A model generated the notes under the pieces. That model was given only the letters and a program-made list of their open reading frames with translations. It was not told the origin of the DNA and did not search any database. From a virus (Duplodnaviria > Heunggongvirae > Uroviricota > Caudoviricetes), in the IMG/VR virus record IMGVR_UViG_3300048593_000456, positions 26,514 to 90,513 of that record: 64,000 nucleotides of DNA. The stretch is one strand, 5' to 3'. Below, piece after piece: positions 4,048 through 24,462 of this stretch; the stretch's first letter is position 1; the number at the start of each line of letters is the position of its first letter. Both the position numbers and the translations under genes were made by a program.

Positions 4048-4573
4048 ATACCTACTGATATTCACACTGATATTTTTACCTTCCATATCTCTTGGAGAAG
4101 AGTCTATTTCTGTAAAAAAAAGGCGTGTAGAAATAAAAAATGTTATACAGAAACATATAGATAAAATCATGGTTTCTGAAACTGAAAAAGAAAAAGATGA
4201 AGAAACTGTTGCTCCTGATAATTCGGGAGTATGTAAAAAATGCAAGGGATTGAAGTACATAGTTCAGGGGGACGGCCACAAAACACCTTGCCCGCTTTGT
4301 ACTAATTTAGGCGATCAGATTATAGAAGAAAAAAAAGCAACTATTTATTTTTATTCTTCGGACAATTGTGATTTGTGCGAAAAATGGAAAGCCGAAGAAT
4401 TGCCGGGCCTTTTAGATTATAATGTAGTCGAAATAAACGAAACTACATCCGTCAGGAAAAAGTTTGGCAAATATCCCGCTTATGAATTAAAGATCGGTAA
4501 TTATACTGTTCAATATATAGGTTATTTAAACAAAAAAGTAGTTGGAGATATTTATGACAAATACAAAAAATGA
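4034..4573 (+). CDS. secreted thioredoxin-like CxxC protein
   Basis: Start moved to the ATG at 4034. N-terminal hydrophobic signal MIYYKYLLIFTLIFLPSISLG. CxxC pairs CKKC, CPLC and CDLCEKW within YFYSSDNCDLCEKWKAEE. Confidence 0.4.
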   Translation: MIYYKYLLIFTLIFLPSISLGEESISVKKRRVEIKNVIQKHIDKIMVSETEKEKDEETVAPDNSGVCKKCKGLKYIVQGDGHKTPCPLCTNLGDQIIEEKKATIYFYSSDNCDLCEKWKAEELPGLLDYNVVEINETTSVRKKFGKYPAYELKIGNYTVQYIGYLNKKVVGDIYDKYKK

Positions 4574-9217: not shown

Positions 9218-12202
9218 ATGACATCTGAAAAAAAGAATTTTGGCAAGAAGTTTCTGTCGGACTTGAAACTTTATAGTGACTATTTTAAATGGAATGAAAA
9301 ACTTAACCGCTACGAAAATTGGAACGAAGCTTGTAGCGATATTGTTGATGGACATAAGAAGAAATATGCTAATGTTGACCTTTCTCGGGAGCTAGATTTA
9401 GTTTTAGAGCTAATGAAATCAAAAACTATCCTTGCTTCACAAAGAAATCTACAGTTTAGACATGACCAGATAATGAGACATAATATGCGTATGTACAATT
9501 GTACGACGCTTCATTTTGTTAGTCCTAGAAATTTTGGAGATGTTCTTTATTTAGGTCTGTGTGGCTGCGGTGTTGGCTCATCTCTTTTACTTCCATTTAT
9601 TAATCAGTTACCGGAATTACAAAAGAGAGAAAAAGGTACTAAGACATATATTATACCCGACAGTATTGAGGGCTGGAAAAATGCAATCGATGTCTTGATG
9701 TCTTCTTATTTTACTGAAAGACAGGTTTTCCCCGAATACTCTGGTTATAATATTAGATTTGATTATTCGCAAATACGTGAAGCTGGTTCATTTATTAATG
9801 GCGGGTTTAAGGCTCCCGGCCCCAACGGTCTAAAAAATTCTCTCGAATCAATAGAGAAGTTGTTGGACCACTGGATACTCACACAAGGCCCGAGGCTGCG
9901 TCCTATAGCCGTCTTTGATATATTGTGCCATTCATCCGATGCTGTTCTTAGCGGCGGCGTTAGACGCTCTGCATTGTCTATGATTGTCGATCCAAACGAT
10001 AAAGAAATGATGCTTGCTAAAACAGGCAACTGGAGAACAGAAAATCCCCAGCGAGGTAGATCTAATAATTCTGTATTAATTCACAGACAGTATTGCGATG
10101 AAAATGAAATATCCCAAAGAAAGTTTTTTGACGAAATCGTAGGAATTAACGATGGAGCAAATGATTTAGGATTCGTATTCTGTAATACTTGGTTCGATGT
10201 ATTCAATCCATGTTTTACAATAGATACAAAAGTTTTAACAACTAATGGTTGGATGACTTTTGGCGAAATGATGGAAAAACAAGATACGGAAGATATTTAT
10301 ATAGTTCAAGATAAAAGAGTTAAAGGTAAAGCAGAAGGAATCCATGAATCTTGGGATACAGATCTTTCAAATACTGGTGTTGAATATAATAAAATTGGTA
10401 AAGTTGCAAAAACAGGTGAGAACGTAGATATTTATGAACTTGTTTTATCCTGTGGTAGAAAAGTTAAAGCAACGGGAAATCATAAATTCTCTACTAAACA
10501 AGGCATGAAAGAACTTTTAAGCCTTCAAATTGGCGATGATGTATTAGTTACATGCGATGAAAATATAACAACTAAAAAAGATGAAGATTTTCATGATGGA
10601 TTTTTATCTGGAATGTGTGTAGGAGACGGATACATTACCGAAGATGATGCCGGAATAAGCGTATGGGAAGATCTAGATGATGAAAATGAAGATTTGGAAT
10701 TTACTAAATCTAGCATAGAACAAATATTCAAAGAAAGCATGTCCAGAAGAATAGAATCTAAAGAATTATATTCTGATGGTAAAAAACCAATATCTACAGA
10801 TATTAAATTTAAGTTACAAAGACAAGTTGGAAATTCTGCTAAATATACACTCGCTTCTACAGGATTTAAGAAATACTTAGATATACTCGGAGTAAGAAAA
10901 GATAATTTATCTTGGCTTTATAAGAAAAGTAAAAACTTTAAGGCTGGATTTGTTGCCGGAATGTTTTTTACAGACGGGCATGTAGATTATACAGAATCAT
11001 CCAAGAGCATATCCTTAAGAATAACTCAATCAAATAAGGAGTTTTTAAACGATCTTTCGTTAATATTGCAAGAAATCGGATTTTTGGCATCTGTCTACGA
11101 TCTACTCCCGGAAGAAACAAGAAAGCTTCCTAATTCACAAAGAGTCTTACAGGATTATAATTGCAAGGCATCATATAGATTATGTATAAATGGATATAAG
11201 CAATCTTGTAAATTTATAGAAGATATTGCATTTTTACATAAAGCAAAAATAAATAAAACCAACGACATACTTAACAATCTCAAGGGATATAAAGATATAT
11301 TAAGGCATAAAAAAGTTGTAAGCATTAACTATTTAGGTAAAGAAGATGTTTACTGCTTAGAAGAAAATAACAACAGAACATTGATAGCAAACGGTATCAC
11401 GGCAGCTAGATGTTTTGAAATCGGCTTCACTCCCGTAGACACTCATGATAAACTTCAAGATATATCTTATGAACAAGTAGAAGAATGGGTCAGACAAAAT
11501 ATTCATCTATTCGGAATACAAGGCTGTAATCTAAACGAAATAAATGCCGAAAAATGCGTGCCCGAAAACGGTAAAACACTTGAAGAATCATTTCTTCGTG
11601 CTTGTGAAGGCGCAGCCATACTTGGTACTTTACAGGCTGGATATACTGATTTTCCTTTTCTATCTCCTAGAACCGAAAAATTGGTTAGACGAGAAGCTTT
11701 GCTTGGGGTTAGTATTACTGGCTGGATGAATAATCCCGCACTATTTAACGAAGAGTTGTTACGTAAAGGTGCTGCCGTTGTTGTGGAAACAAATAAAAAG
11801 GTAGCTGCTAAGATAGGTATTAATCAAGCCGCTAGAACTACATGTGTGAAACCGAGCGGAAATGCGTGTACAAAATTCGATACTATTATAAAAACAAACA
11901 TTGGTGACTTAACATTATTAGAAATTTTTAAATACTGCTTAGACGATCCCAATTTTGATACAGAAACCATTAATTTTACAGATACTTCATTTAATTTGAA
12001 AAAACCTTTAAAAGTTTATGATAAAAATAATAATGAGCAAAGTATAGAATTGTTATACATAAACGGTTTATCTGAAACATATGAAGTAGAGTTTGAAGAC
12101 GGTCAAGTTTATTCTTTTACTGAAAATCATAAATTATTAACTGATAAAGGATGGAAACTTGTTAAAGACCTAAAAGAAAATGATGAAATAATAAGCTTTT
12201 AG
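9218..12202 (+). CDS. ribonucleotide reductase large subunit, N-terminal fragment, with one complete LAGLIDADG intein and the N-half of a split intein
   Basis: Extein motifs: FNP-C(F)EIG reconstituting NPCxEI, GCNLNEIN, TTCVKPSGN. Intein 1 is about 10211..11410 and begins CFTIDTKVL. It has block B TGNHKF and two LAGLIDADG motifs, FLSGMCVGDGYI and FVAGMFFTDGHVDY. From about 11867 a second intein N-half begins, CTKFDTII...TENHKLLTDKGWKLV. The ORF then hits a stop. Confidence 0.7.
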   Translation: MTSEKKNFGKKFLSDLKLYSDYFKWNEKLNRYENWNEACSDIVDGHKKKYANVDLSRELDLVLELMKSKTILASQRNLQFRHDQIMRHNMRMYNCTTLHFVSPRNFGDVLYLGLCGCGVGSSLLLPFINQLPELQKREKGTKTYIIPDSIEGWKNAIDVLMSSYFTERQVFPEYSGYNIRFDYSQIREAGSFINGGFKAPGPNGLKNSLESIEKLLDHWILTQGPRLRPIAVFDILCHSSDAVLSGGVRRSALSMIVDPNDKEMMLAKTGNWRTENPQRGRSNNSVLIHRQYCDENEISQRKFFDEIVGINDGANDLGFVFCNTWFDVFNPCFTIDTKVLTTNGWMTFGEMMEKQDTEDIYIVQDKRVKGKAEGIHESWDTDLSNTGVEYNKIGKVAKTGENVDIYELVLSCGRKVKATGNHKFSTKQGMKELLSLQIGDDVLVTCDENITTKKDEDFHDGFLSGMCVGDGYITEDDAGISVWEDLDDENEDLEFTKSSIEQIFKESMSRRIESKELYSDGKKPISTDIKFKLQRQVGNSAKYTLASTGFKKYLDILGVRKDNLSWLYKKSKNFKAGFVAGMFFTDGHVDYTESSKSISLRITQSNKEFLNDLSLILQEIGFLASVYDLLPEETRKLPNSQRVLQDYNCKASYRLCINGYKQSCKFIEDIAFLHKAKINKTNDILNNLKGYKDILRHKKVVSINYLGKEDVYCLEENNNRTLIANGITAARCFEIGFTPVDTHDKLQDISYEQVEEWVRQNIHLFGIQGCNLNEINAEKCVPENGKTLEESFLRACEGAAILGTLQAGYTDFPFLSPRTEKLVRREALLGVSITGWMNNPALFNEELLRKGAAVVVETNKKVAAKIGINQAARTTCVKPSGNACTKFDTIIKTNIGDLTLLEIFKYCLDDPNFDTETINFTDTSFNLKKPLKVYDKNNNEQSIELLYINGLSETYEVEFEDGQVYSFTENHKLLTDKGWKLVKDLKENDEIISF

Positions 12203-12244
12203 GGTATATCATATTAAGCCTAGTAAAATAAAGGAGGGTTTAAC

Positions 12245-13063
12245 ATGCCATACGTATATTTTTTAAAAAATAAAACAACAGGACTGAAATATATAGGAGT
12301 TAAATATTCAAAAGGGTGTGACTCGAAGCTTTTTTGGTTGACATATTTCACATCCTCAAAACAAGTAAAACAACTCATAAAACTTTTTGGAAAAGAAGAT
12401 TTTTCATTCAAAATTTTAAAAGAATTTGAAAACAAATGTAGTGCATTAGATTATGAAAATAAATTATTAAAAATTGCTACTAAAAAAGATGATTATTTAA
12501 ACATGCATACAAATTTTCATGGGTTATTAACTCATGAACAAATCGAGGAAAATCATAAGAAACAAGCTATATCAGCTAGTATTACTGGTTTATTATGTTT
12601 AAAAAATAAAACTGGCATTTTTTCTTTATCCAAAAAAGAAAGGATTAAGGCATGTAGTAATGGCGGAATTAATGCAGCAAGAGTGAATAGATTATTGAAT
12701 AGAGCAATATTTAATAAAGAAATAAGAAGTATTCAGCACAAAACTCTTAAATTGAAAAAAATAAGTGCGTTTTATAATCCTGACACCAGAAAAGAAATAT
12801 CTAGAAAGGGCGGACTAAACGGCAGATTTAGTAAAAAATATTTTGAAAAAAACAATATGCCGGAAGAACAAAGAATAGAAGAACAAAGAAGAAGAGGTAA
12901 AATTGGCGGTAAAAAAAATTCTGGATTTATTTGGTATAACGATGGGTTAAAATCGTATAAATATACTAAAAAACAACAAAAAGAATTAAATTTCAATGAT
13001 TTCTTAAAAGAAAACCCAAGCTTTAAAAAAGGAAGAACAAGTGCGAATAAAAAAAATAACTAA
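12245..13063 (+). CDS. GIY-YIG homing endonuclease (free-standing, between the split-intein halves)
   Basis: N-terminal YVYFLKNKTTGLKYIGVKYS (GIY...YIG). Strong RBS AAGGAGGG. Basic C-terminal region. Confidence 0.75.
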   Translation: MPYVYFLKNKTTGLKYIGVKYSKGCDSKLFWLTYFTSSKQVKQLIKLFGKEDFSFKILKEFENKCSALDYENKLLKIATKKDDYLNMHTNFHGLLTHEQIEENHKKQAISASITGLLCLKNKTGIFSLSKKERIKACSNGGINAARVNRLLNRAIFNKEIRSIQHKTLKLKKISAFYNPDTRKEISRKGGLNGRFSKKYFEKNNMPEEQRIEEQRRRGKIGGKKNSGFIWYNDGLKSYKYTKKQQKELNFNDFLKENPSFKKGRTSANKKNN

Positions 13064-14009
13064 GTCGTTAAAACTATCGATTACTGGCGATATTCAGGTT
13101 GCAAATACAAACAGTTATCAATTAAAAAATGGGGCAGTTTCTCATAACTCTGTAGTTTTAATGACCGAGTCCGGAATTCACCCTGCTCATTCTTTAATGT
13201 ATTTTAGAGTTATGCAGTTAAACAAAAATTCCGATACTGCAAAATTTTTAGAACAAGAAATGCCGTTTTTACTGGAAGAAAGTGTATGGTCTAAAAATAA
13301 TACAGATCACGTAGTATTCGTTCCTATAATAAATCCACCAGATGGTTTGTTTAAAAAGGATATGAAGGGCGTAAAACACTTAGAGTTAATCAAGCTGGTT
13401 CAAAACAACTGGATTGTACCCGGAACTAATAGAGATATTGGTATATGCGATCTTACTAATCATAATTGTAGCTGCACGGTAATCATAGACGATAGCAAAG
13501 CAGTGACAAATTATATATGGAATAACAGAAAAGATTTCACTGCTGTATCATTTATATCCGACTATGGAGATAAAGATTTTAACCAAGCACCATTTACAAG
13601 CGTAATGAACTTTGAAGAAATTGCATCAGTGTATGGTGAAGGATCTATGTTCGCATCGGGCCTTATTGTTGACGGGCTACATTATTTTAATAATAATTTA
13701 TGGAATGCCTGCGACTGTCTTTTGGATAAAAATATTCCTATCGCCGGAACTAGAGAGCAAGTATTACTCAAAAAAGACTGGCTGAGACGGGCAAAGCAGT
13801 TCGCTAAGAATTACTTCAAAAATGATATCAAAAAAATGATATATTGCCTAAAAGATATTCACCTGTTCCACAAGTGGAAATCAATAAACAGGCAAATGAA
13901 AGAAATATCACTGGAAACCGTTTTAAATAAACCGTCCTACAAAGATGTTTCTGATTACGCTGCCGTGGCTTGTTCTGGCGGATCTTGCGAAGTTACAAGG
14001 CTTAATTAA
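13041..14009 (+). CDS. ribonucleotide reductase C-terminal fragment preceded by split-intein C-half
   Basis: GTG start with an AAGGAAG RBS. The first 36 aa MRIKKITKSLKLSITGDIQVANTNSYQLKNGAVSHN end in the canonical intein block-G NG..vHN. The +1 Ser starts the extein SVVLMTESG.... The protein ends with the redox Cys pair ACSGGSCEV, as in NrdA CESGAC. Confidence 0.65.
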   Translation: MRIKKITKSLKLSITGDIQVANTNSYQLKNGAVSHNSVVLMTESGIHPAHSLMYFRVMQLNKNSDTAKFLEQEMPFLLEESVWSKNNTDHVVFVPIINPPDGLFKKDMKGVKHLELIKLVQNNWIVPGTNRDIGICDLTNHNCSCTVIIDDSKAVTNYIWNNRKDFTAVSFISDYGDKDFNQAPFTSVMNFEEIASVYGEGSMFASGLIVDGLHYFNNNLWNACDCLLDKNIPIAGTREQVLLKKDWLRRAKQFAKNYFKNDIKKMIYCLKDIHLFHKWKSINRQMKEISLETVLNKPSYKDVSDYAAVACSGGSCEVTRLN

Positions 14010-17581: not shown

Positions 17582-17972
17582 TGCCGCACAATATATAGCG
17601 GAAATTGTTTGCCTACGTAATTTTAAAAAGAAGCAGATGGGCGATCCATCATTCAAGTTTTGGAATAAAGAAGAAAAAAGTATCTACCAAGGACAAGTTG
17701 TAACAGCAAATAAACTCATTAATGAGTATGGAGTTGAAGCTGTTTTAGATTATATAAATTTTAATAAAGGTATATACTCTCTCGGGCATTTTAATCCCAT
17801 AAAATTTATAAAAGACGGGATATCTAAAACAAAATGGATTCTAGACAAAAAGAGTTCCGTTTCTAAGAAAAATATAGAAGAAGAAAAACAACAGGAAGTT
17901 CCGCAGACAAATTTCGAAATTCCCAAACCTAAACAAAAAACAACATTAATTGATAAACTAAGGAACACATGA
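17520..17972 (+). CDS. hypothetical protein (start uncertain; an alternative in-frame ATG lies near 17637)
   Basis: Overlaps the previous ORF by about 60 nt in another frame. Confidence 0.3.
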   Translation: MDKKRTEKKPYCSPTTGEPCSAAQYIAEIVCLRNFKKKQMGDPSFKFWNKEEKSIYQGQVVTANKLINEYGVEAVLDYINFNKGIYSLGHFNPIKFIKDGISKTKWILDKKSSVSKKNIEEEKQQEVPQTNFEIPKPKQKTTLIDKLRNT

Positions 17973-20002
17973 GCGATAAAAATCTGGATGCCATTTTAAA
18001 GGAAATAAAAAAGAAGCATGGTAATATTATCATTAAGGGTAATGAATTACTTAATCAAAGAAAAGATCATAAAACAATTTCTGTTAGTCCTTCAATAGAT
18101 CTTGCTTTAAAAGGTGGTGTAAGAGAGGGGACTTGGTTAATGTTGTCGGGAGCACCTAAATCGGGCAAGGCACAGCCTATGGATGCTATTATCTACACTC
18201 CTTCTGGACCTACAGTGTTTGAATCTCTTTCAGTTGGGGATGAAATTTGTGGTATTGATGGAAAGCATTGTATAGTCAGAGCTATATACCCCCAAGGAGT
18301 AAGAAAGGTTTATAAGGTTCTTTTTAGTGACGGTACTAACGTAGAGTGTGACGGGCATCATTTGTGGCCGGTATCTGTCAATAGAGTAAATTCGTCTGTT
18401 TTACTTAAGACTACAGAGGAGCTACTATCTAAAGTAAGCTATCCCGACCGCGATAAATGGAAAATAAAATATAGCCACTGTGATTTTAATACTAAGGAAA
18501 CTGTAATAGATCCTTTTGTACTAGGTGTTATATTAGCAGATGGATACGTAGATGCAAATCAGCGTCTTTACATAAAAAATGCAAAACCATACATACTTGA
18601 AGAATTTAATACGAAGATATCTCAATATAATTGCATATTAGATTCTACTGGGGATAGTGGTTATCAAGGCATTATATTAAGCACTGAGAAAAATAATTAC
18701 TTAAACTATTTTATACAAAATTACATGAAATCTTCTCCGGGTCAAAAAGTTATAACACGTAGCTCTTTTAAGGTTCCGGATTTATATAAATACAACTCGT
18801 TTTATAATAGAAACGAACTACTTCGGGGATTTTTAGGATCTAACGGTTATCTTCATCCTTCTGGATACTATGAGGTCGAATCAGCAAACACCCAATTACT
18901 GCGTGACATAGCCGAAGTATCCAGATCATTAGGCTATCCGACTTATATTAACGACAGAAAAGACAGTAGGCAAAGACTAACAATTAATAACTGCGGGGTT
19001 ATGTTACATGCATTAAAAGAAAATAATTCGCCATGCCCGGTAGAAAATTATAAAACCATAAATCTTATTACGGAAGTTGGCGATAAATACTGTCAGTGCA
19101 TAGAAATTGATCAGGACGGTTTATATTTAACTAATGGATTTAATGTTACCCATAATACCACAACTGCTATGCAGCTAGCATTTAATTGTCAGAAAGAAGG
19201 CCGTCCGGTTATCTATATTAATGCCGAGGGTAGATTAAGCGAAATGAATTTTGATGTTCGCGGGCTTGATCCTGAAAAGATGCAGATTATTACGGCAGAA
19301 GATAAACCATTATCCGCAGAAATATTTTTAGATACTGCATTACAACTTATATCAGCAAAAGAAAATGTAGGTGCTTTATGTATTATCGATTCGGTATCTG
19401 CTTTAATACCATCTAGAGAACTAGAAGAAGATGTAACAGGCATGGCTAGACCGGGATTGCCCAAGCTATTATCTAATTTTGTTAAGAAAGCCGGTCAAAT
19501 TGTCCCTAATAACAAGATTACAATGTGCATGATTACGCACCTTATTACTAATACTAGCGGCTATGGACCAAGTAAAATGGCCGACTCTGGTGTAAAGATA
19601 CAGTATCAGGCAGATACTAGAATGGAGGTAAAATCTATTTCACCGTGGGAGCACAAAGAAAAACAGGTCGGGCAAGCCGTAAACTGGAAAATATATTATA
19701 GCTCTAAGGGTGCTACAGGCGTTGAGTGCCAATCATGGATTCGTTACGGCGAAGGTATTGACAGTGCTCAAGAACTGCTTATACTTGGCGAGGAACTGTC
19801 GTTAATCTCCAAGGCCGGTGCGTGGTATACACTAGACTTCCTAAAGTCAAAGCCCGAGGAATTCAAAAAGATTTTGCCCGATGGAGACATTGACAAAGCA
19901 TGTAAATTTCAAGGGCAAGAAAAAGTCTATAACTTTATTAATGATAACCCCGCTGTACTCGAACTTTTACAGAATGATATTTTCGAGATGCTTGCATCAT
20001 GA
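17969..20002 (+). CDS. RecA/UvsX-family recombinase interrupted by a class-3-like LAGLIDADG intein
   Basis: The extein reconstitutes SGAPKSGK|TTTAMQLAFNCQKEGRPVIYINAEG, matching RecA GPESSGKTTLTL...CAFIDAEH. The C-terminal RecA core is present: IIDSVSALIP...MITHLITNTSGYG. The intein is about 18170..19156. It starts with Ala and has block B DGHHLW, LAGLIDADG motifs LGVILADGYV and LRGFLGSNGY, block F KYCQC and block G NGFNVTHN|T. Confidence 0.8.
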   Translation: MSDKNLDAILKEIKKKHGNIIIKGNELLNQRKDHKTISVSPSIDLALKGGVREGTWLMLSGAPKSGKAQPMDAIIYTPSGPTVFESLSVGDEICGIDGKHCIVRAIYPQGVRKVYKVLFSDGTNVECDGHHLWPVSVNRVNSSVLLKTTEELLSKVSYPDRDKWKIKYSHCDFNTKETVIDPFVLGVILADGYVDANQRLYIKNAKPYILEEFNTKISQYNCILDSTGDSGYQGIILSTEKNNYLNYFIQNYMKSSPGQKVITRSSFKVPDLYKYNSFYNRNELLRGFLGSNGYLHPSGYYEVESANTQLLRDIAEVSRSLGYPTYINDRKDSRQRLTINNCGVMLHALKENNSPCPVENYKTINLITEVGDKYCQCIEIDQDGLYLTNGFNVTHNTTTAMQLAFNCQKEGRPVIYINAEGRLSEMNFDVRGLDPEKMQIITAEDKPLSAEIFLDTALQLISAKENVGALCIIDSVSALIPSRELEEDVTGMARPGLPKLLSNFVKKAGQIVPNNKITMCMITHLITNTSGYGPSKMADSGVKIQYQADTRMEVKSISPWEHKEKQVGQAVNWKIYYSSKGATGVECQSWIRYGEGIDSAQELLILGEELSLISKAGAWYTLDFLKSKPEEFKKILPDGDIDKACKFQGQEKVYNFINDNPAVLELLQNDIFEMLAS

Positions 20003-20421
20003 GAATTTTAGGATTAGACGGAAAAGAACATAAGTTATCATTTCACGGAAACACATCTGCTGACAAAAATGATAATAATAGGTCAAAGCTACATTTAAAA
20101 GCAAGAGAAATACTCACAAAGATATTTCCTTTTGATATCATACATGAAGAAGTAACTTTACCCGGAACAAAAGCTAAAAACTCTAAATCTTTACTGTATG
20201 CTGATTTTTTCATTCCATCCCGAAACCTTATTGTGGAGGTTAACGGGGAGCAGCATGATATTTATATAAAATTCTTTCATAAAAATAAGCTAGATTTTTA
20301 TAAAGCTAAGGCCCGAGATAGAAATAAAAAAGAATGGTGTGAATTAAACGGTATAACAATTGTATATTTAAACCATAACGAATCCGAAGAAGAATGGACG
20401 GCCAAGATCAATGAAAGATAA
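19999..20421 (+). CDS. Vsr/DUF559-like PD-(D/E)XK endonuclease
   Basis: DFFIPSRNLIVEVNGEQHD matches the DUF559/Vsr core D-x(n)-EvDG-x-H. It lies immediately downstream of the intein-bearing recombinase gene. Confidence 0.45.
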   Translation: MRILGLDGKEHKLSFHGNTSADKNDNNRSKLHLKAREILTKIFPFDIIHEEVTLPGTKAKNSKSLLYADFFIPSRNLIVEVNGEQHDIYIKFFHKNKLDFYKAKARDRNKKEWCELNGITIVYLNHNESEEEWTAKINER

Positions 20422-22559: not shown

Positions 22560-22648
22560 GCCCCGGAAGTTATTGCGGCGGAACACGCCATTACGCGCTC
22601 TTAGGGGCGAGCGGGTGTCGGGCGAGGGTTCGAATCCCTCTCGGGGCT
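22560..22648 (+). ncRNA. 88-nt tRNA-like RNA (non-canonical; not a standard tRNA)
   Basis: 7-bp acceptor stem GCCCCGG/TCGGGGC. Canonical T-arm GAGGG-TTCGAAT-CCCTC. Internally, AA sits at positions 8-9 and there are two hairpins: GGCG-GAACA-CGCC and CGCTC-TTAGGGGC-GAGCG (an 8-nt loop). It lies about 130 nt downstream of the promoter above. Confidence 0.35.
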
Positions 22649-22674
22649 TTTGGGACGGCGCAATGGAGGTTTAA

Positions 22675-22761
22675 ATGACAGAAACAGGCTTGTTGGTCTA
22701 TGGTTTATTTCTGGTGTTTATTACCATCTGGGTTTGGTTCGAAGGTGATAATCCAAGTTAA
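22675..22761 (+). CDS. small hydrophobic peptide (28 aa)
   Basis: A GGAGG RBS sits 7 nt upstream of the ATG. Sequence MTETGLLVYGLFLVFITIWVWFEGDNPS. Below the track's size cut-off. Confidence 0.3.
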   Translation: MTETGLLVYGLFLVFITIWVWFEGDNPS

Positions 22762-22781
22762 AAAAATATTTTGAGGTAATT

Positions 22782-23066
22782 ATGGCACTTAAAAAAACTG
22801 TTGTAGAAATCAAGCACGATGAAGGTTATGGAGATATGCTATTGCTGCATATTAATAATTCGCTTCGTGGTAAAGACATGATCGCTGAGCGTATCATTGA
22901 TACGGAAAGAATGGAGACTGATATCGCTAAGGCTAAAGAACGACTAAGAAAGACTAGAAAAGGTGTTGATATGGGGGTTATCCACTTTGACAGTCATTTG
23001 AACTATGCACAAGGCGTAGTTGATGGCTTAGAATCAGCATACGATATTTTACATATAGAACTATAG
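22782..23066 (+). CDS. hypothetical protein
   Basis: 94-aa track ORF with ATG start. Confidence 0.4.
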   Translation: MALKKTVVEIKHDEGYGDMLLLHINNSLRGKDMIAERIIDTERMETDIAKAKERLRKTRKGVDMGVIHFDSHLNYAQGVVDGLESAYDILHIEL

Positions 23067-23141
23067 ACATAAACGGCGGAGAGGCGGTATCTTGCTATGG
23101 CAAGGTATCGTCTCGTTGAAACTGGATTGTGTCTATAATAT

Positions 23142-23213
<72 letters not shown>

Positions 23214-23311
23214 TTGACTCGTCCATTCCTAGCACGAGATATATACCACGAAGCTAGCGTCGTGACATTAGGATAACTTCCGTCAATCTATCGGAAGCAA
23301 AATATCATAGA

Positions 23312-23382
23312 GAAGTAGTAGTTCAGGGGTAGAACGTCGCCGGTTCAGGCGAATGACGGTGGTTCGAATCCATCCTGCTTCA
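23312..23382 (+). tRNA. tRNA, anticodon unresolved
   Basis: Acceptor GAAGTAG/CTGCTTC. D-arm GTTC-AGGGGTA-GAAC. T-arm GGTGG-TTCGAAT-CCATC. As read, the anticodon stem TCGCC/GGCGA encloses only 6 nt, GGTTCA. It may be a degenerate tRNA or I may have misread a base. Confidence 0.45.
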
Positions 23383-23396
23383 ATTCACCCATTAAA

Positions 23397-23420
23397 CCGA
23401 TGCCGGAATTCCGGCATCGG
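23397..23420 (+). repeat. perfect 24-nt palindrome between two tRNAs (possible processing or terminator hairpin)
   Basis: CCGATGCCGG-AATT-CCGGCATCGG. Confidence 0.5.
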
Positions 23421-23436
23421 CTTTAAGGGATGTATC

Positions 23437-23522
23437 GGTAAAGTAGCACGTAATTGGCAGCGTAGGGGTCTGTAACACCCTCACCCTAACAGGTCTTGTA
23501 GGTTCAAGTCCTACCTTTACCA
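23437..23522 (+). tRNA. tRNA-Tyr (GUA), type II with long variable arm
   Basis: Acceptor GGTAAAG/CTTTACC. Anticodon arm GGGGT-CTGTAAC-ACCCT. T-arm GTAGG-TTCAAGT-CCTAC. 86 nt. Confidence 0.7.
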
Positions 23523-23569
23523 CTTAATTAATATAAAAATTTTATCTGGAGTTTAAAGGGGAAAAATAA

Positions 23570-23908
23570 ATGAGCCTAAACAAAAGCAATTATATTGAAT
23601 ATATTCTTCCAGCAATGGCATTAGGGGCACTTATTTTTCTCGGTGTTACATTTTATAACGAGAAAAAAACAGAGAAATTTGAAATACTTCCTCAATTAAA
23701 AGAGCATCGTGTTAGATTGGTGCGGCCCGATGGAGCCGTAGATAAAATAATTAAGATTTATAAGTATGAAGATTCTACTTTAATTTTTAGTTCTAGTTCG
23801 GGAAACCTTTGTGTGTATGGCTACGATAATGATCGTGATAGATATGCAAACACATACATTGCCCCTATCGGCTGGAATCTAGAACCAGTAAACGAAAACG
23901 AAGAGTGA
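23570..23908 (+). CDS. membrane-anchored hypothetical protein
   Basis: N-terminal TM segment ILPAMALGALIFLGVTF. Confidence 0.4.
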   Translation: MSLNKSNYIEYILPAMALGALIFLGVTFYNEKKTEKFEILPQLKEHRVRLVRPDGAVDKIIKIYKYEDSTLIFSSSSGNLCVYGYDNDRDRYANTYIAPIGWNLEPVNENEE

Positions 23909-23943
23909 TATTTTTTATTTCTTTTTTTATAAATAGGAATCAT

Positions 23944-24126
23944 ATGAAATTTTTTAATGCACTACAGATCGTGACTTTATTTTCAGCATGGCCAATGCTA
24001 ATAAACTGGCTTGGTAATAACCCTTTTAAGGGTGCAGAAATTTTATACTATGTTGCATGGGTTGTTTATGCAGTTGGATTTTTCTTTCTTACGGTTTCAG
24101 TAGCAGAAGCGATAGAAAAGACTTAA
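23944..24126 (+). CDS. small membrane protein
   Basis: ATG with an AGGA RBS. Two hydrophobic helices. Confidence 0.35.
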   Translation: MKFFNALQIVTLFSAWPMLINWLGNNPFKGAEILYYVAWVVYAVGFFFLTVSVAEAIEKT

Positions 24127-24128
24127 TC

Positions 24129-24332
24129 ATGAATCAAGATTTATCCCAACACTTTAAATACATCCAAGATAAAATTAGCGACGAAGGTTTTGATTATTGT
24201 TTTAGGTACTATTCAACTTTTGGTCATCTTGAAGATGAAAAATTTCATTCTTTAAGAGAGTCTTATATAAAAATTGCTAATGAGCTTGAAGAATATATCA
24301 ATGAGAAATCCGCCGATCTTTTGTTTGAATGA
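24129..24332 (+). CDS. hypothetical protein
   Basis: In-frame ATG giving MNQDLSQHF.... Confidence 0.35.
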   Translation: MNQDLSQHFKYIQDKISDEGFDYCFRYYSTFGHLEDEKFHSLRESYIKIANELEEYINEKSADLLFE

Positions 24333-24333
24333 C

Positions 24334-24361
24334 TTGACAGCCCGTAAAAGCGTGCTATAAT
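24334..24361 (+). promoter_or_regulatory. consensus sigma70-type promoter upstream of tRNA-Met
   Basis: TTGACA-GCCCGTAAAAGCGTGC (16 nt)-TATAAT. Confidence 0.55.
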
Positions 24362-24391
24362 AGTCGCATATTCGCATTTGTTTCTACATTC

Positions 24392-24462
24392 TGCGGGCTA
24401 GAGTAAAGGCAACTCGTCGGTCTCATAAGCCGAAGCTACTGGTTCGATTCCAGTGCCCGCAA
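24392..24462 (+). tRNA. tRNA-Met (CAU); could be initiator, elongator or lysidine-modified Ile2
   Basis: Acceptor TGCGGGC/GCCCGCA. D-arm GAGT-AAAGGCA-ACTC. Anticodon arm TCGGT-CTCATAA-GCCGA. T-arm ACTGG-TTCGATT-CCAGT. Confidence 0.75.

Follow-up and report, generated by a model that had tools for sequence, protein, structure and literature searches.

A predicted class 3 intein, carrying a LAGLIDADG domain, interrupts the P-loop of a phage RecA/UvsX-like recombinase

The interrupted recombinase gene

The stretch of phage DNA analysed here, 64,000 nt long and referred to below as the window, carries a gene for a RecA/UvsX-like recombinase whose Walker A motif is split by a predicted intein, with a nuclease-like ORF directly downstream. 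The features are listed with their evidence in brackets; a slash within a motif marks a splice junction.

17969..20002, plus strand: RecA/UvsX-like recombinase precursor gene, intein-split (ORF list; Pfam RecA, Hom_end, LAGLIDADG_3)
17969..18169, plus strand: N-extein, aa 1-67, ending in the Walker A stretch ...SGAPKSGK (DNA read; intein-free homologs)
18170..19156, plus strand: predicted intein, 329 aa, Ala1 to His328-Asn329 (junctions; phmmer against the PDB; AlphaFold; Foldseek)
18170..18211, plus strand: block A region (AQPMDAIIYTPSGP), with Ala1 non-nucleophilic (121 relatives)
18338..18373, plus strand: block B (NVECDGHHLWPV), with Asp61 at B:7, His64 at B:10 and Trp66 at B:12
18485..19036, plus strand: LAGLIDADG homing-endonuclease domain, about intein aa 106-289 (Pfam, model, Foldseek)
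18515..18550, plus strand: LAGLIDADG motif 1 (FVLGVILADGYV), acidic Asp124 kept
18818..18853, plus strand: LAGLIDADG motif 2 (LLRGFLGSNGYL), Asn225 in place of the catalytic Asp
19082..19138, plus strand: block F (DKYCQCIEIDQDGLYLTNG), with Cys310 at F:4 and Cys308 at F:2
19139..19159, plus strand: block G, FNVTHN/T, with Thr327 at G:5, His328, Asn329 and Thr+1
19157..20002, plus strand: C-extein (TTTAMQLAFNCQ... up to the stop codon), remaining RecA core and C-terminal domain
19999..20421, plus strand: nuclease-like ORF, 140 aa, its start overlapping the recA stop (PHROG, weak Pfam)

The ORF encodes a precursor of 677 aa, in which an in-frame insert of 987 nt (329 codons) separates Lys67 from Thr397. 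Its first codon, GCA (Ala, nt 18170-18172), comes straight after GGC AAG (Gly-Lys), and its last two, CAT AAT (His-Asn, nt 19151-19156), are followed by ACC ACA ACT (Thr-Thr-Thr). When the insert is removed in silico the Pfam RecA score rises from 53 bits, over profile positions 62-262 only, to 74 bits over positions 1-262. The spliced extein matches Pfam RecA at 1.6e-20 over the same 1-262 range, RecA_C at 4e-6 and phrog_97 (‘UvsX-like recombinase’) at 8e-34. To judge from these matches the host protein is a RecA/UvsX-like recombinase, with both the RecA core (Walker A/B) and the RecA C-terminal domain present.

The junctions can be placed with precision, since the homologs without an intein read through an unbroken Walker A motif. 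Among the 120 intein-free homologs listed (52-74% identity to the spliced extein) this was so in 119, typically as G.PKSGKTTTAMQ[IL], the N-extein sequence continuing directly into TTTAMQ, and both junctions are thereby fixed to the residue. The intein accounts exactly for the difference between two related proteins, P0032 (691 aa) and P0262 (352 aa), and at the DNA level the intein-plus L005, less 1017 nt, is colinear with the near-identical, intein-minus L006. The full-length architecture recurs in 36 homologs, RecA-like proteins with a homologous insert at the identical site. The original prediction had put an intein at 18170-19156 in the P-loop of such a recombinase, between the Walker A Lys and Thr. 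Coordinates, junction codons, Pfam and phrog_97 agree with this, as does the uninterrupted GKTTT of the intein-free homologs, and the strings that it quoted (SGAPKSGK/AQP..., DGHHLW, KYCQCIEID, NVTHN/TTTAMQ, LGVILADGYV and LRGFLGSNGY) are all present in the DNA.

In a megablast search the gene matched none of 50,697 phage records, and none of those records gave a match to the RecA-plus-intein combination covering at least 80% of the precursor. The RIIA protein and the RecA extein are only about 28-42% identical to those of known phages. By these comparisons the phage has no close deposited relative, and a RecA host for a class 3 intein is unseen among deposited phage genomes.

Elsewhere in the window there is a fractured nrdJ gene. 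One of the NrdJ inteins of the window ends in Arg rather than Asn, an ending that is conserved, and the one review covered on this point makes no mention of an Arg-ended NrdJ intein.

Class 3 signature and related inteins

The insert shows the general hallmarks of an intein: it is in frame and missing from homologs, has a HINT fold, and carries a His at B:10 and a C-terminal Asn. It also shows every sequence feature by which class 3 inteins are recognised (Tori et al. 2010; definition in PMC2807308, PMC3196547 and PMC7664689), namely a non-nucleophilic residue 1, Trp66 (nt 18365-18367, two residues after His64 at nt 18359-18361), Cys310 (nt 19097-19099), Thr327 and a Thr at +1, which is Thr397 of the precursor (ACC, nt 19157-19159). 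Conservation was counted over 121 related inteins, and a separate alignment of 65 sequences (25-74% identity to the window intein) was also made. Residue 1 is Ala in 107 of the 121, with Glu in 6, Asp in 2, Ser in 3 and 3 unaligned; residues 2-3 are QP in nearly all, making AQP the family N-terminus. Trp occupies B:12 in 119/121 and Cys occupies F:4 in 121/121, all 121 end in THN, and the +1 residue is Thr in 111 and Ser in 10. In the 65-sequence alignment the columns of Trp66, Cys310 and Thr327-His328-Asn329 are invariant, as is that of His64. By contrast with F:4, the F:2 position, held in the window intein by Cys308 (nt 19091-19093), varies among C, A, T, S, M, V and Q, and is Cys in 68/121; Cys is also frequent at B:6.

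A phmmer search of the PDB gave MchDnaB-1 (6rix/6riy, E 2e-8), gp41-1_WCT and Msm DnaB1 (6bs8) as top matches; this score and the 36 RecA-like proteins sharing the site put the finding well outside chance. In the HMMER alignments Cys310 pairs with the catalytic F:4 Cys in both MchDnaB-1 (6rix) and gp41-1_WCT (6riz). Cys310 is our predicted block F nucleophile, whilst Cys308, the first Cys of ‘CQC’, was ruled out for that role by the alignment and by the variability of F:2. The earlier reading of the sequence, with an Ala start, a Trp two residues after the block B His, a Thr-His-Asn ending before Thr+1 and a WCT pattern diagnostic of class 3, is borne out by these counts and by the class 3 DnaB inteins at the head of the PDB matches; its block F cysteine also holds, but specifically as the second, invariant Cys and not the first. 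Best-hit similarity to solved class 3 inteins suggests that the window intein may belong to the monophyletic class 3 clade.

The AlphaFold model of the intein (pLDDT 92.4, pTM 0.91) consists of a HINT domain and a LAGLIDADG domain. In Foldseek the best full-length matches to the whole intein are PI-SceI, TliVMA and PI-PfuI, and the splicing domain matches MchDnaB-1 with a TMt of 0.78-0.80. The Pfam Hint profiles barely detect the splicing domain (Hint_2 only, E 0.08), so that the curated profile misses this family and the identity of the intein is established through PDB sequences, homologs and structure. The published failure of a WCT triplet grafted onto a class 1 intein to give splicing (PMC7664689) means that the triplet alone is no guarantee of activity. 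Taking the evidence together, we consider it very probable that this class 3 intein, with the LAGLIDADG domain nested in it, is competent to splice, and that it occupies the classic GK/T site in the P-loop of a RecA/UvsX-like recombinase from an uncultured phage.

The best solved sequence matches, M. smegmatis DnaBi1 (6bs8) and M. chimaera MchDnaB1 (6rix/6riy), at E 2e-8 to 1e-6, are DnaB-b site inteins which, like that of the window, interrupt a RecA-fold ATPase directly behind the ...GK of its Walker A motif (N-extein of MchDnaB1: ‘SVGK’; PMC7664689). These DnaB inteins share Ala1, a DxxH-x-W block B (the DxxH pattern has been described for Msm DnaBi1; PMC6195587), the F:4 Cys and THN with the window intein, and the numbering of the N-terminal half nearly matches (H65/W67 in the DnaB inteins, H64/W66 here). 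The splicing domains are nevertheless only about 30% identical, the host is a replicative helicase rather than a recombinase, and the crystallised DnaB inteins are 128-146 aa long without an endonuclease, whereas the window intein carries a 185-aa LAGLIDADG domain, an AQP start and a second Cys at F:2. MP-Be DnaB of mycobacteriophage Bethlehem, the class 3 prototype, which is grouped with Dra Snf2 and MP-Catera gp206, resembles the window intein in its published features. Both are phage-borne, lack a nucleophile at residue 1, have the WCT residues at B:12/F:4/G:5 and Thr at +1, and contain a LAGLIDADG domain, and in both some 20 residues separate the F:4 Cys from the C-terminal end (C320 of 341 in MP-Be, C310 of 329 here); MP-Be DnaB, however, starts with Pro after Gln-1 and has a helicase host (PMC2807308).

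The same Lys/Thr site is used by the classic P-loop inteins, whose hosts are phage terminases (TerL1-a) and further ATPases (Kelley et al. 2016; Novikova et al. 2016). Those hosts, unlike that of the window, are not recombinases. The classical case in a bacterial-type RecA is that of the M. tuberculosis and M. leprae inteins, which sit outside the P-loop, at other RecA sites. The Pyrococcus horikoshii RadA intein, a class 1 mini-intein (Cys1) without an endonuclease domain, does lie in the P-loop of a RecA-superfamily recombinase, but it is archaeal, and no match between it and the window intein was detectable in the PDB search. It is reported to block the ATPase until spliced (cited in PMC6195587 and PMC4760082), and the M. 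tuberculosis RecA intein is of class 1, with Asp (Asp422) at F:4 (PMC6195587).

The endonuclease domain, mobility and the downstream ORF

Within the insert, Pfam detects Hom_end (3e-6) and LAGLIDADG_3 (8e-6), the modelled LAGLIDADG helices span residues 115-124 and 211-225, and the domain matches PI-SceI, TliVMA, PI-PfuI and I-DmoI in Foldseek. The embedded LAGLIDADG domain of the original prediction is therefore upheld by Pfam and by fold, but its catalytic apparatus is probably incomplete: of the Asp/Glu residues expected to close each helix, motif 1 (ILADG, with Gly119 invariant in the 65-sequence alignment) keeps Asp124, whereas motif 2 (LGSNG) has Asn225. The window shares this Asn with its nearer relatives (P0001-P0003, P0005-P0007, P0009-P0010, P0013-P0014), the Asp is retained in more distant ones (P0011, P0028, P0030-P0036), and in P0020-P0027 both motifs are degenerate. 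Since Asn225 stands at a metal-binding Asp position, endonuclease activity is doubtful; the window enzyme has probably lost one active site and would be inactive or at most a nickase, which speaks against present-day homing by this copy.

In comparison with L001, an 83%-identical relative, synonymous sites are saturated (pS 0.72-0.75), so that dN/dS is not properly estimable and only the pN values were used. These are 0.05 in the extein, 0.14 in the HINT domain and 0.20 in the endonuclease domain. The endonuclease domain remains under purifying selection despite Asn225. No intein-free allele was found among the 16 members of the window's 90% cluster, with contigs of up to 170 kb, and the intein looks fixed in the window's own lineage. 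Composition gives no signal of recent acquisition, with GC at 0.30-0.43 within the intein and 0.28-0.45 around it. A trace of homing comes from a relative: between L005 and L006, 6/6 consecutive codons around the insertion point differ silently, against a background of 1.3%, and this cluster is indirect evidence of homing in the family.

The ORF that follows recA matches PHROG families annotated ‘homing endonuclease’ and ‘HNH endonuclease’ at about 4e-13 (phrog_9084, ‘homing endonuclease’, 5e-13; phrog_559, 4e-13). The nuclease gene reported earlier at this position is thus upheld in its adjacency and its nuclease-like profile match, but the Pfam DUF559 match is below the cut-off (E 0.026; 14.8 bits against 20.6), with DUF2726 at E 0.014. 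A counterpart lies directly after recA in the intein-free L003 (53% identity), in L001 (74%) and in L005 (46%), and L006 has an ORF of equal size at the corresponding position. A role as a free-standing homing helper of the intein was rejected, because the gene follows recA in intein-free genomes and has diverged as its neighbours have; it is a conserved neighbour with no link to intein mobility.

Proposed splicing, alternatives and significance

Translation would yield the 677-aa precursor, and with Walker A split in it, ATP binding and hydrolysis are not expected, the Pho RadA and Msm DnaB inteins in P-loops serving as the analogy. With Ala at residue 1, an N-S acyl shift is impossible at the N-terminus. 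Judging by the signature in the sequence and by the mechanism published for MP-Be DnaB, Dra Snf2 and MchDnaB1, Cys310, beside His64, Asp61 and Trp66, would attack the Lys67-Ala68 peptide bond and hold the N-extein as a thioester. The N-extein would then pass to the hydroxyl of Thr397 (+1), cyclisation of Asn329, assisted by His328, would release the intein, and an O-to-N shift would form the Lys67-Thr397 bond, restoring GAPKSGKTTT and, with it, an active recombinase of 348 aa. As DNA, members of the family would spread into intein-free recA alleles by endonuclease-mediated homing during co-infection.

An N-terminal Ala is common to the window intein and the class 2 inteins of KlbA, and a class 2 assignment would account for the missing nucleophile. 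In class 2 inteins, however, the +1 residue is Cys, whereas the window intein is followed by Thr, a residue ill suited to attacking an amide directly. Class 2 inteins likewise have no N-terminal nucleophile but otherwise carry class 1 motifs (PMC3196547) and have been found only in KlbA, the Mja KlbA intein having Asp at F:4. With the full WCT triplet present and invariant, and class 3 inteins as the closest solved relatives by sequence, we regard class 2 as highly improbable. Still harder to credit is a boundary set one residue off, concealing a conventional Cys, Ser or Thr nucleophile and a class 1 intein. P0031 does begin with Ser, and Ser occupies residue 1 in three family members, yet at the window junction (...S-G-K/A-Q-P-M) no such residue is within reach, and a one-residue shift would either remove the Walker Lys or put Ala into GKT. 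The original prediction had named such a shift as grounds for its rejection, and the intein-free homologs, together with the P0032/P0262 pair and the colinearity of L005 with L006, exclude it.

The degenerate motif 2 bears on two further readings. It could mark a decayed, non-splicing intein in a dead phage recombinase gene, and certain class-3-like inteins are indeed known as pseudogenes (PMC3196547). Arsp-FB24 Arth_1007, the model for such decay, nevertheless lacks His B:10 and Cys F:4, whereas the splicing residues of the window intein are all intact. Both exteins are complete and strongly constrained by purifying selection (their low pN standing beside a saturated pS), the HINT domain is constrained too, and the window's cluster extends over many members and long contigs; decay is very unlikely. 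Alternatively, the intein may have been retained, or ‘domesticated’, with homing lost and splicing gating the recombinase, for example through redox- or zinc-sensitive C60, C308 and C310. The presence of Asn225 throughout the nearer relatives, in an endonuclease domain that stays under purifying selection, the apparent fixation in the cluster and the common Cys at F:2 and B:6 all favour this, and there is a precedent in Msm DnaBi1, a P-loop class 3 intein reversibly inhibited by oxidation via its F:4 Cys (PMC6195587). On the other hand, constraint on the endonuclease domain may reflect a folding role or residual nicking, and the sampling of intein-free alleles behind the apparent fixation is incomplete. 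We give retention of this kind a small but real chance, and it is compatible with class 3 chemistry.

A splicing-competent class 3 intein remains our preferred reading, and on it the window element is confirmatory, a further member of an already known kind of intein, in a recombinase host. By its sequence it belongs to a very large family, ‘GK/AQP…C…THN/T’, whose members sit in phosphate loops across many ATPases; at the P-loop site the relatives' hosts include terminases, DnaB, SF2/SNF2 helicases, PhoH, clamp loaders and AAA proteins. There is a slight chance that one class 3 lineage is a phosphate-loop generalist, with the intein retained as a post-translational switch on RecA in lineages like that of the window, where the endonuclease has lost a catalytic Asp yet stays under selection. 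If true, this lineage would have colonised the Gly-Lys/Thr site in eight or more ATPase families, unrelated or only distantly related to one another and including phage RecA, with GDG/TTT the equivalent insertion position in GroEL, and a redox- or zinc-sensitive switch of C60, C308 and C310 would keep ATP out of the recombinase site until conditions allowed.

These findings overturn no current understanding. Few class 3 inteins, which splice through an internal rather than an N-terminal Cys, have been studied, and the locus extends their hosts to a recombinase, interrupted at the canonical P-loop position. The near-identical intein-plus and intein-minus phage genomes L005 and L006, with their silent-site cluster, preserve a record from nature of how homing proceeds among uncultured phages. 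The natural alignment of 121 sequences from at least eight host families, with the WCT Trp and Cys invariant or nearly so, Thr-His-Asn invariant and the F:2 Cys variable, offers a guide to mutagenesis and to the engineering of compact class 3 splicing domains.

Junctions and class of the RecA intein

Reading of the DNA and its ORFs gives two features, whose coordinates and quoted strings match the original prediction exactly:

17969..20002, + strand: RecA/UvsX-like precursor, 677 aa (ORF list)
18170..19156, + strand: intein, 329 codons (DNA read codon by codon)

The precursor runs from ...LMLSGAPKSGK into the intein, AQPMDAIIYTPSGP... (329 codons), which ends ...GFNVTHN and is followed by TTTAMQLAFNCQKEGRPVIYINAEG.... 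In Pfam the flanks match RecA, and the part between them matches Hom_end/LAGLIDADG_3. When this middle part is removed in silico, the RecA score rises from 53 to 74 bits and the match extends over the whole profile (1-262), and the spliced protein is classed by PHROGs as a UvsX-like recombinase (8e-34).

A search with the spliced exteins gave 469 homologs. The 120 listed are 330-370 aa long and 52-74% identical, and Walker A is unbroken in 119 of these 120, most commonly as GDPKSGKTTTAMQI or a near variant. In a distant branch, a single 90%-identity cluster holds both the intein-bearing protein P0032 (691 aa) and intein-free proteins of 352 aa, such as P0262, the difference being exactly the insert. 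Similarly, the intein-bearing locus L005, without its 1017-nt intein, is colinear with the intein-free locus L006 across 7059 nt, with 95 mismatches. Because of the uninterrupted homologs, this protein pair and the L005/L006 colinearity, we assign the intein to Ala68 to Asn396 of the precursor. A boundary shift of one residue to either side would delete the Walker Lys or put Ala within GKT. The original prediction allowed for a Cys or Ser nucleophile hidden at a displaced boundary, which is excluded by the intein-free homologs and the allele pairs.

By definition, class 3 inteins combine Trp at B:12, Cys at F:4 and Thr at G:5 with a first residue that is not a nucleophile and with Thr or Ser at +1 (PMC2807308, PMC3196547). 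The window intein has A1, D61-x-x-H64-x-W66, C310, T327-H328-N329 and T+1 (intein numbering). The top phmmer matches among all PDB sequences are to the class 3 MchDnaB-1 intein (6rix/6riy, E 2e-8), followed by gp41-1 inteins, both WCT-grafted and native, and Msm DnaB1, another class 3 intein, and the alignments place the second Cys of 'CQC' on the catalytic F:4 Cys. By every sequence criterion, then, the window intein is of class 3, as had been proposed from Ala1, the block B Trp, the block F Cys and the block G Thr.

Residues in the alignment of 121 inteins (120 homologous inteins, aligned with an HMM built on the RecA set, plus the window intein)
Residue 1: Ala 107, Glu 6, Asp 2, Ser 3, unaligned 3
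B:10: His 121/121
B:12: Trp 119/121
F:2 (first Cys of CQC): C 68, A 28, T 13, M 4, S 3, Q 3, V 2
F:4: Cys 121/121
G:5-G:7: Thr-His-Asn 121/121
−2, −1: Gly-Lys 118/121
+1: Thr 111, Ser 10

Since the F:4 Cys is invariant and F:2 varies among the 121 inteins, C308 (F:2) is ruled out and the predicted nucleophile is C310. A cluster of Cys residues surrounds the predicted active site, comprising C60 (B:6; 18347..18349), C308 and C310 (19091..19099); many relatives have 'CC' at B:6-B:7, and 68 of the 121 family members have the F:2 Cys. By analogy with Msm DnaBi1, C60, C308 and C310 might together act as a redox-active or metal-binding site.

Endonuclease domain, mobility and surroundings

An AlphaFold2 model of the intein (65-sequence alignment) has a mean pLDDT of 92.4 and a pTM of 0.91. 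Its first Foldseek matches in the PDB are the intein-endonucleases TliVMA, PI-SceI and PI-PfuI (E 1e-14 to 1e-10, TMq ~0.7). The splicing domain alone matches MchDnaB-1 (TMt 0.78-0.80), Msm DnaB1 and gp41-1, and the inserted domain matches I-DmoI. In the model, a HINT domain (~aa 1-105 and 290-329) encloses a LAGLIDADG domain (~aa 106-289); the embedded endonuclease of the original prediction is recovered by both Pfam and Foldseek. Motif 1 (GVILADGY) keeps Asp124, and motif 2 (GFLGSNGY) has Asn225 at the expected catalytic Asp position, an Asn common to the window's nearer relatives. In more distant RecA inteins neither motif has lost its Asp; in a further subgroup both have.

Compared with L001, an 83%-identical intein-bearing relative, synonymous sites are saturated (pS 0.72-0.75) and pN is lowest for the exteins (0.05), intermediate for the HINT domain (0.14) and highest for the endonuclease domain (0.20). 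All three are constrained, the endonuclease domain least. No intein-free allele was found among the 16 members of the window's own 90% cluster, all of which are intein-bearing or fragments. We read the intein as fixed in the window's lineage, with an endonuclease that appears impaired yet not freely decaying.

Elsewhere in the family, L005, whose intein has both Asp residues intact, and L006 show a background divergence of 1.3% (98.7% identity over 7 kb), yet six of six consecutive codons round the insertion point differ silently (third positions −12, −9, −6, −3, 0 and +3). With the insertion point marked by a slash, L005 reads GCA AAA ACC GGC AAG/ACC and L006 reads GCC AAG ACA GGA AAA/ACG. 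These positions belong to the relatives, not the window:

L005 3187..3204 and 4219..4221, L006 3187..3207: silent-change cluster

Such a cluster is the pattern expected from homing co-conversion or target-site immunity.

Directly downstream of recA lies a further ORF:

19999..20421: nuclease-like ORF, 140 aa, its start overlapping the recA stop (ATGA; PHROG/Pfam match)

The original prediction of a Vsr/DUF559-like nuclease here stands as regards a nuclease-like gene adjoining recA (PHROG 'homing endonuclease'/'HNH endonuclease' families, ~4e-13), but the Pfam match to DUF559/DUF2726 is weak. The motif ...YADFFIP...IVEVNGEQHD resembles those of Vsr/DUF559-type nucleases. Homologs directly follow recA in L001 (74% identity), the intein-free relative L003 (53%) and L005 (46%), and intein-free L006 has a same-sized ORF at that position. 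A role in intein mobility was rejected because the gene also follows recA in intein-free relatives; it is likely a conserved, fixed functional partner of recA rather than a mobile homing endonuclease.

The window phage is large and uncultured, and no close deposited relative was found. Its genes include RIIA, RNA ligase, NAMPT, PhoH, dUTPase, a DnaB-like helicase, class II RNR and five tRNAs. The tRNA cluster (22560..24462) includes Val-TAC, Asn-GTT, Tyr-GTA and Met-CAT; for the gene at 23312..23382, ARAGORN left the identity blank, with a two-base 'tt' anticodon call.

Inteins in nrdJ

Upstream of recA, nrdJ (class II ribonucleotide reductase) has been invaded twice:

10211..11410 (within ORF 9218..12202): internal LAGLIDADG intein, 400 aa, at the thiyl-radical NP/C site
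11867..13148: fractured nrdJ region (ORFs 9218..12202, 12245..13063 and 13041..14009)
11867..12199: split-intein N-fragment, 111 aa (CTKFDTIIKT...EIISF, then stop), at the end of ORF 9218..12202
12245..13063: free-standing SegE-like GIY-YIG endonuclease gene (Pfam 9e-8)
from 13041 (ORF 13041..14009): split-intein C-fragment, 36 aa (...NGAVSHN/SVVLMTESG), ending SHN/S

A related phage has NrdJ contiguous at the split site (KPSGNA/SVVLMTESG). The layout is that of the 'fractured gene' of Dassa et al. 2009, although the NrdJ site differs from NrdJ-1/2.

The junctions of the internal intein were set by the intein-free NrdJ of a related phage (P0279, FNPCFEIGF). It starts with Cys1 and ends Ala-Arg/Cys, not His-Asn/Cys. 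An exhaustive HMMER search yielded an alignment of 152 RNR inteins (the window's, the best 150 50%-identity representatives and the closer homologs P0276/P0277), in which the last residue is Arg in 36, Asn in 60 and Gln in 50, the remainder stopping before the junction. Decay was rejected as the origin of the Arg ending, since 36 of the 152 end likewise (29 'RR', 4 'AR' and others; mostly 'TARR/C'). Three features co-vary with the Arg ending: F:4 is always Cys, 'R-T' replaces the F:13 His/Asn, and Glu follows F:4. Asn, Gln, Asp and Glu are the only C-terminal intein residues named in a 2014 mechanism review (PMC4031507), and full-text searches of the literature found no Arg-ending intein. Inteins with the Arg ending may cleave their C-terminal junction by a mechanism of their own, and we think the way they resolve it more interesting than the RecA intein.

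Relation to known inteins

Insertion between Lys and Thr of Walker A is the 'classic' P-loop intein site (PMC5050341). The Msm and Mch DnaB inteins, placed after ...GK of DnaB (PMC6195587, PMC7664689), share both class 3 and this position with the window intein; the archaeal Pho RadA intein, as cited in PMC6195587, likewise interrupts the P-loop of a recombinase of the RecA family. On these precedents, the window intein would work like the classic P-loop, DnaB and RadA inteins. A monophyletic, phage origin has been proposed for class 3 inteins (PMC3196547).

The family is not confined to Walker A GK/T sites, because it includes the GroEL/Cpn60 members P0070 and P0090, at the phosphate-binding loop GDG/TTT; their inteins start with Pro1 (AGDG/PQP...THN/TTT). 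A single protein, P0038, carries two such inteins. The window's own PhoH and DnaB-like genes, hosts elsewhere, are both uninterrupted.

Among 50,697 deposited phage genomes there is no RecA carrying this intein, although in metagenomes such RecA proteins form at least 36 separate clusters at 90% identity. What is new is the host protein, a phage RecA, the intein type being already known.
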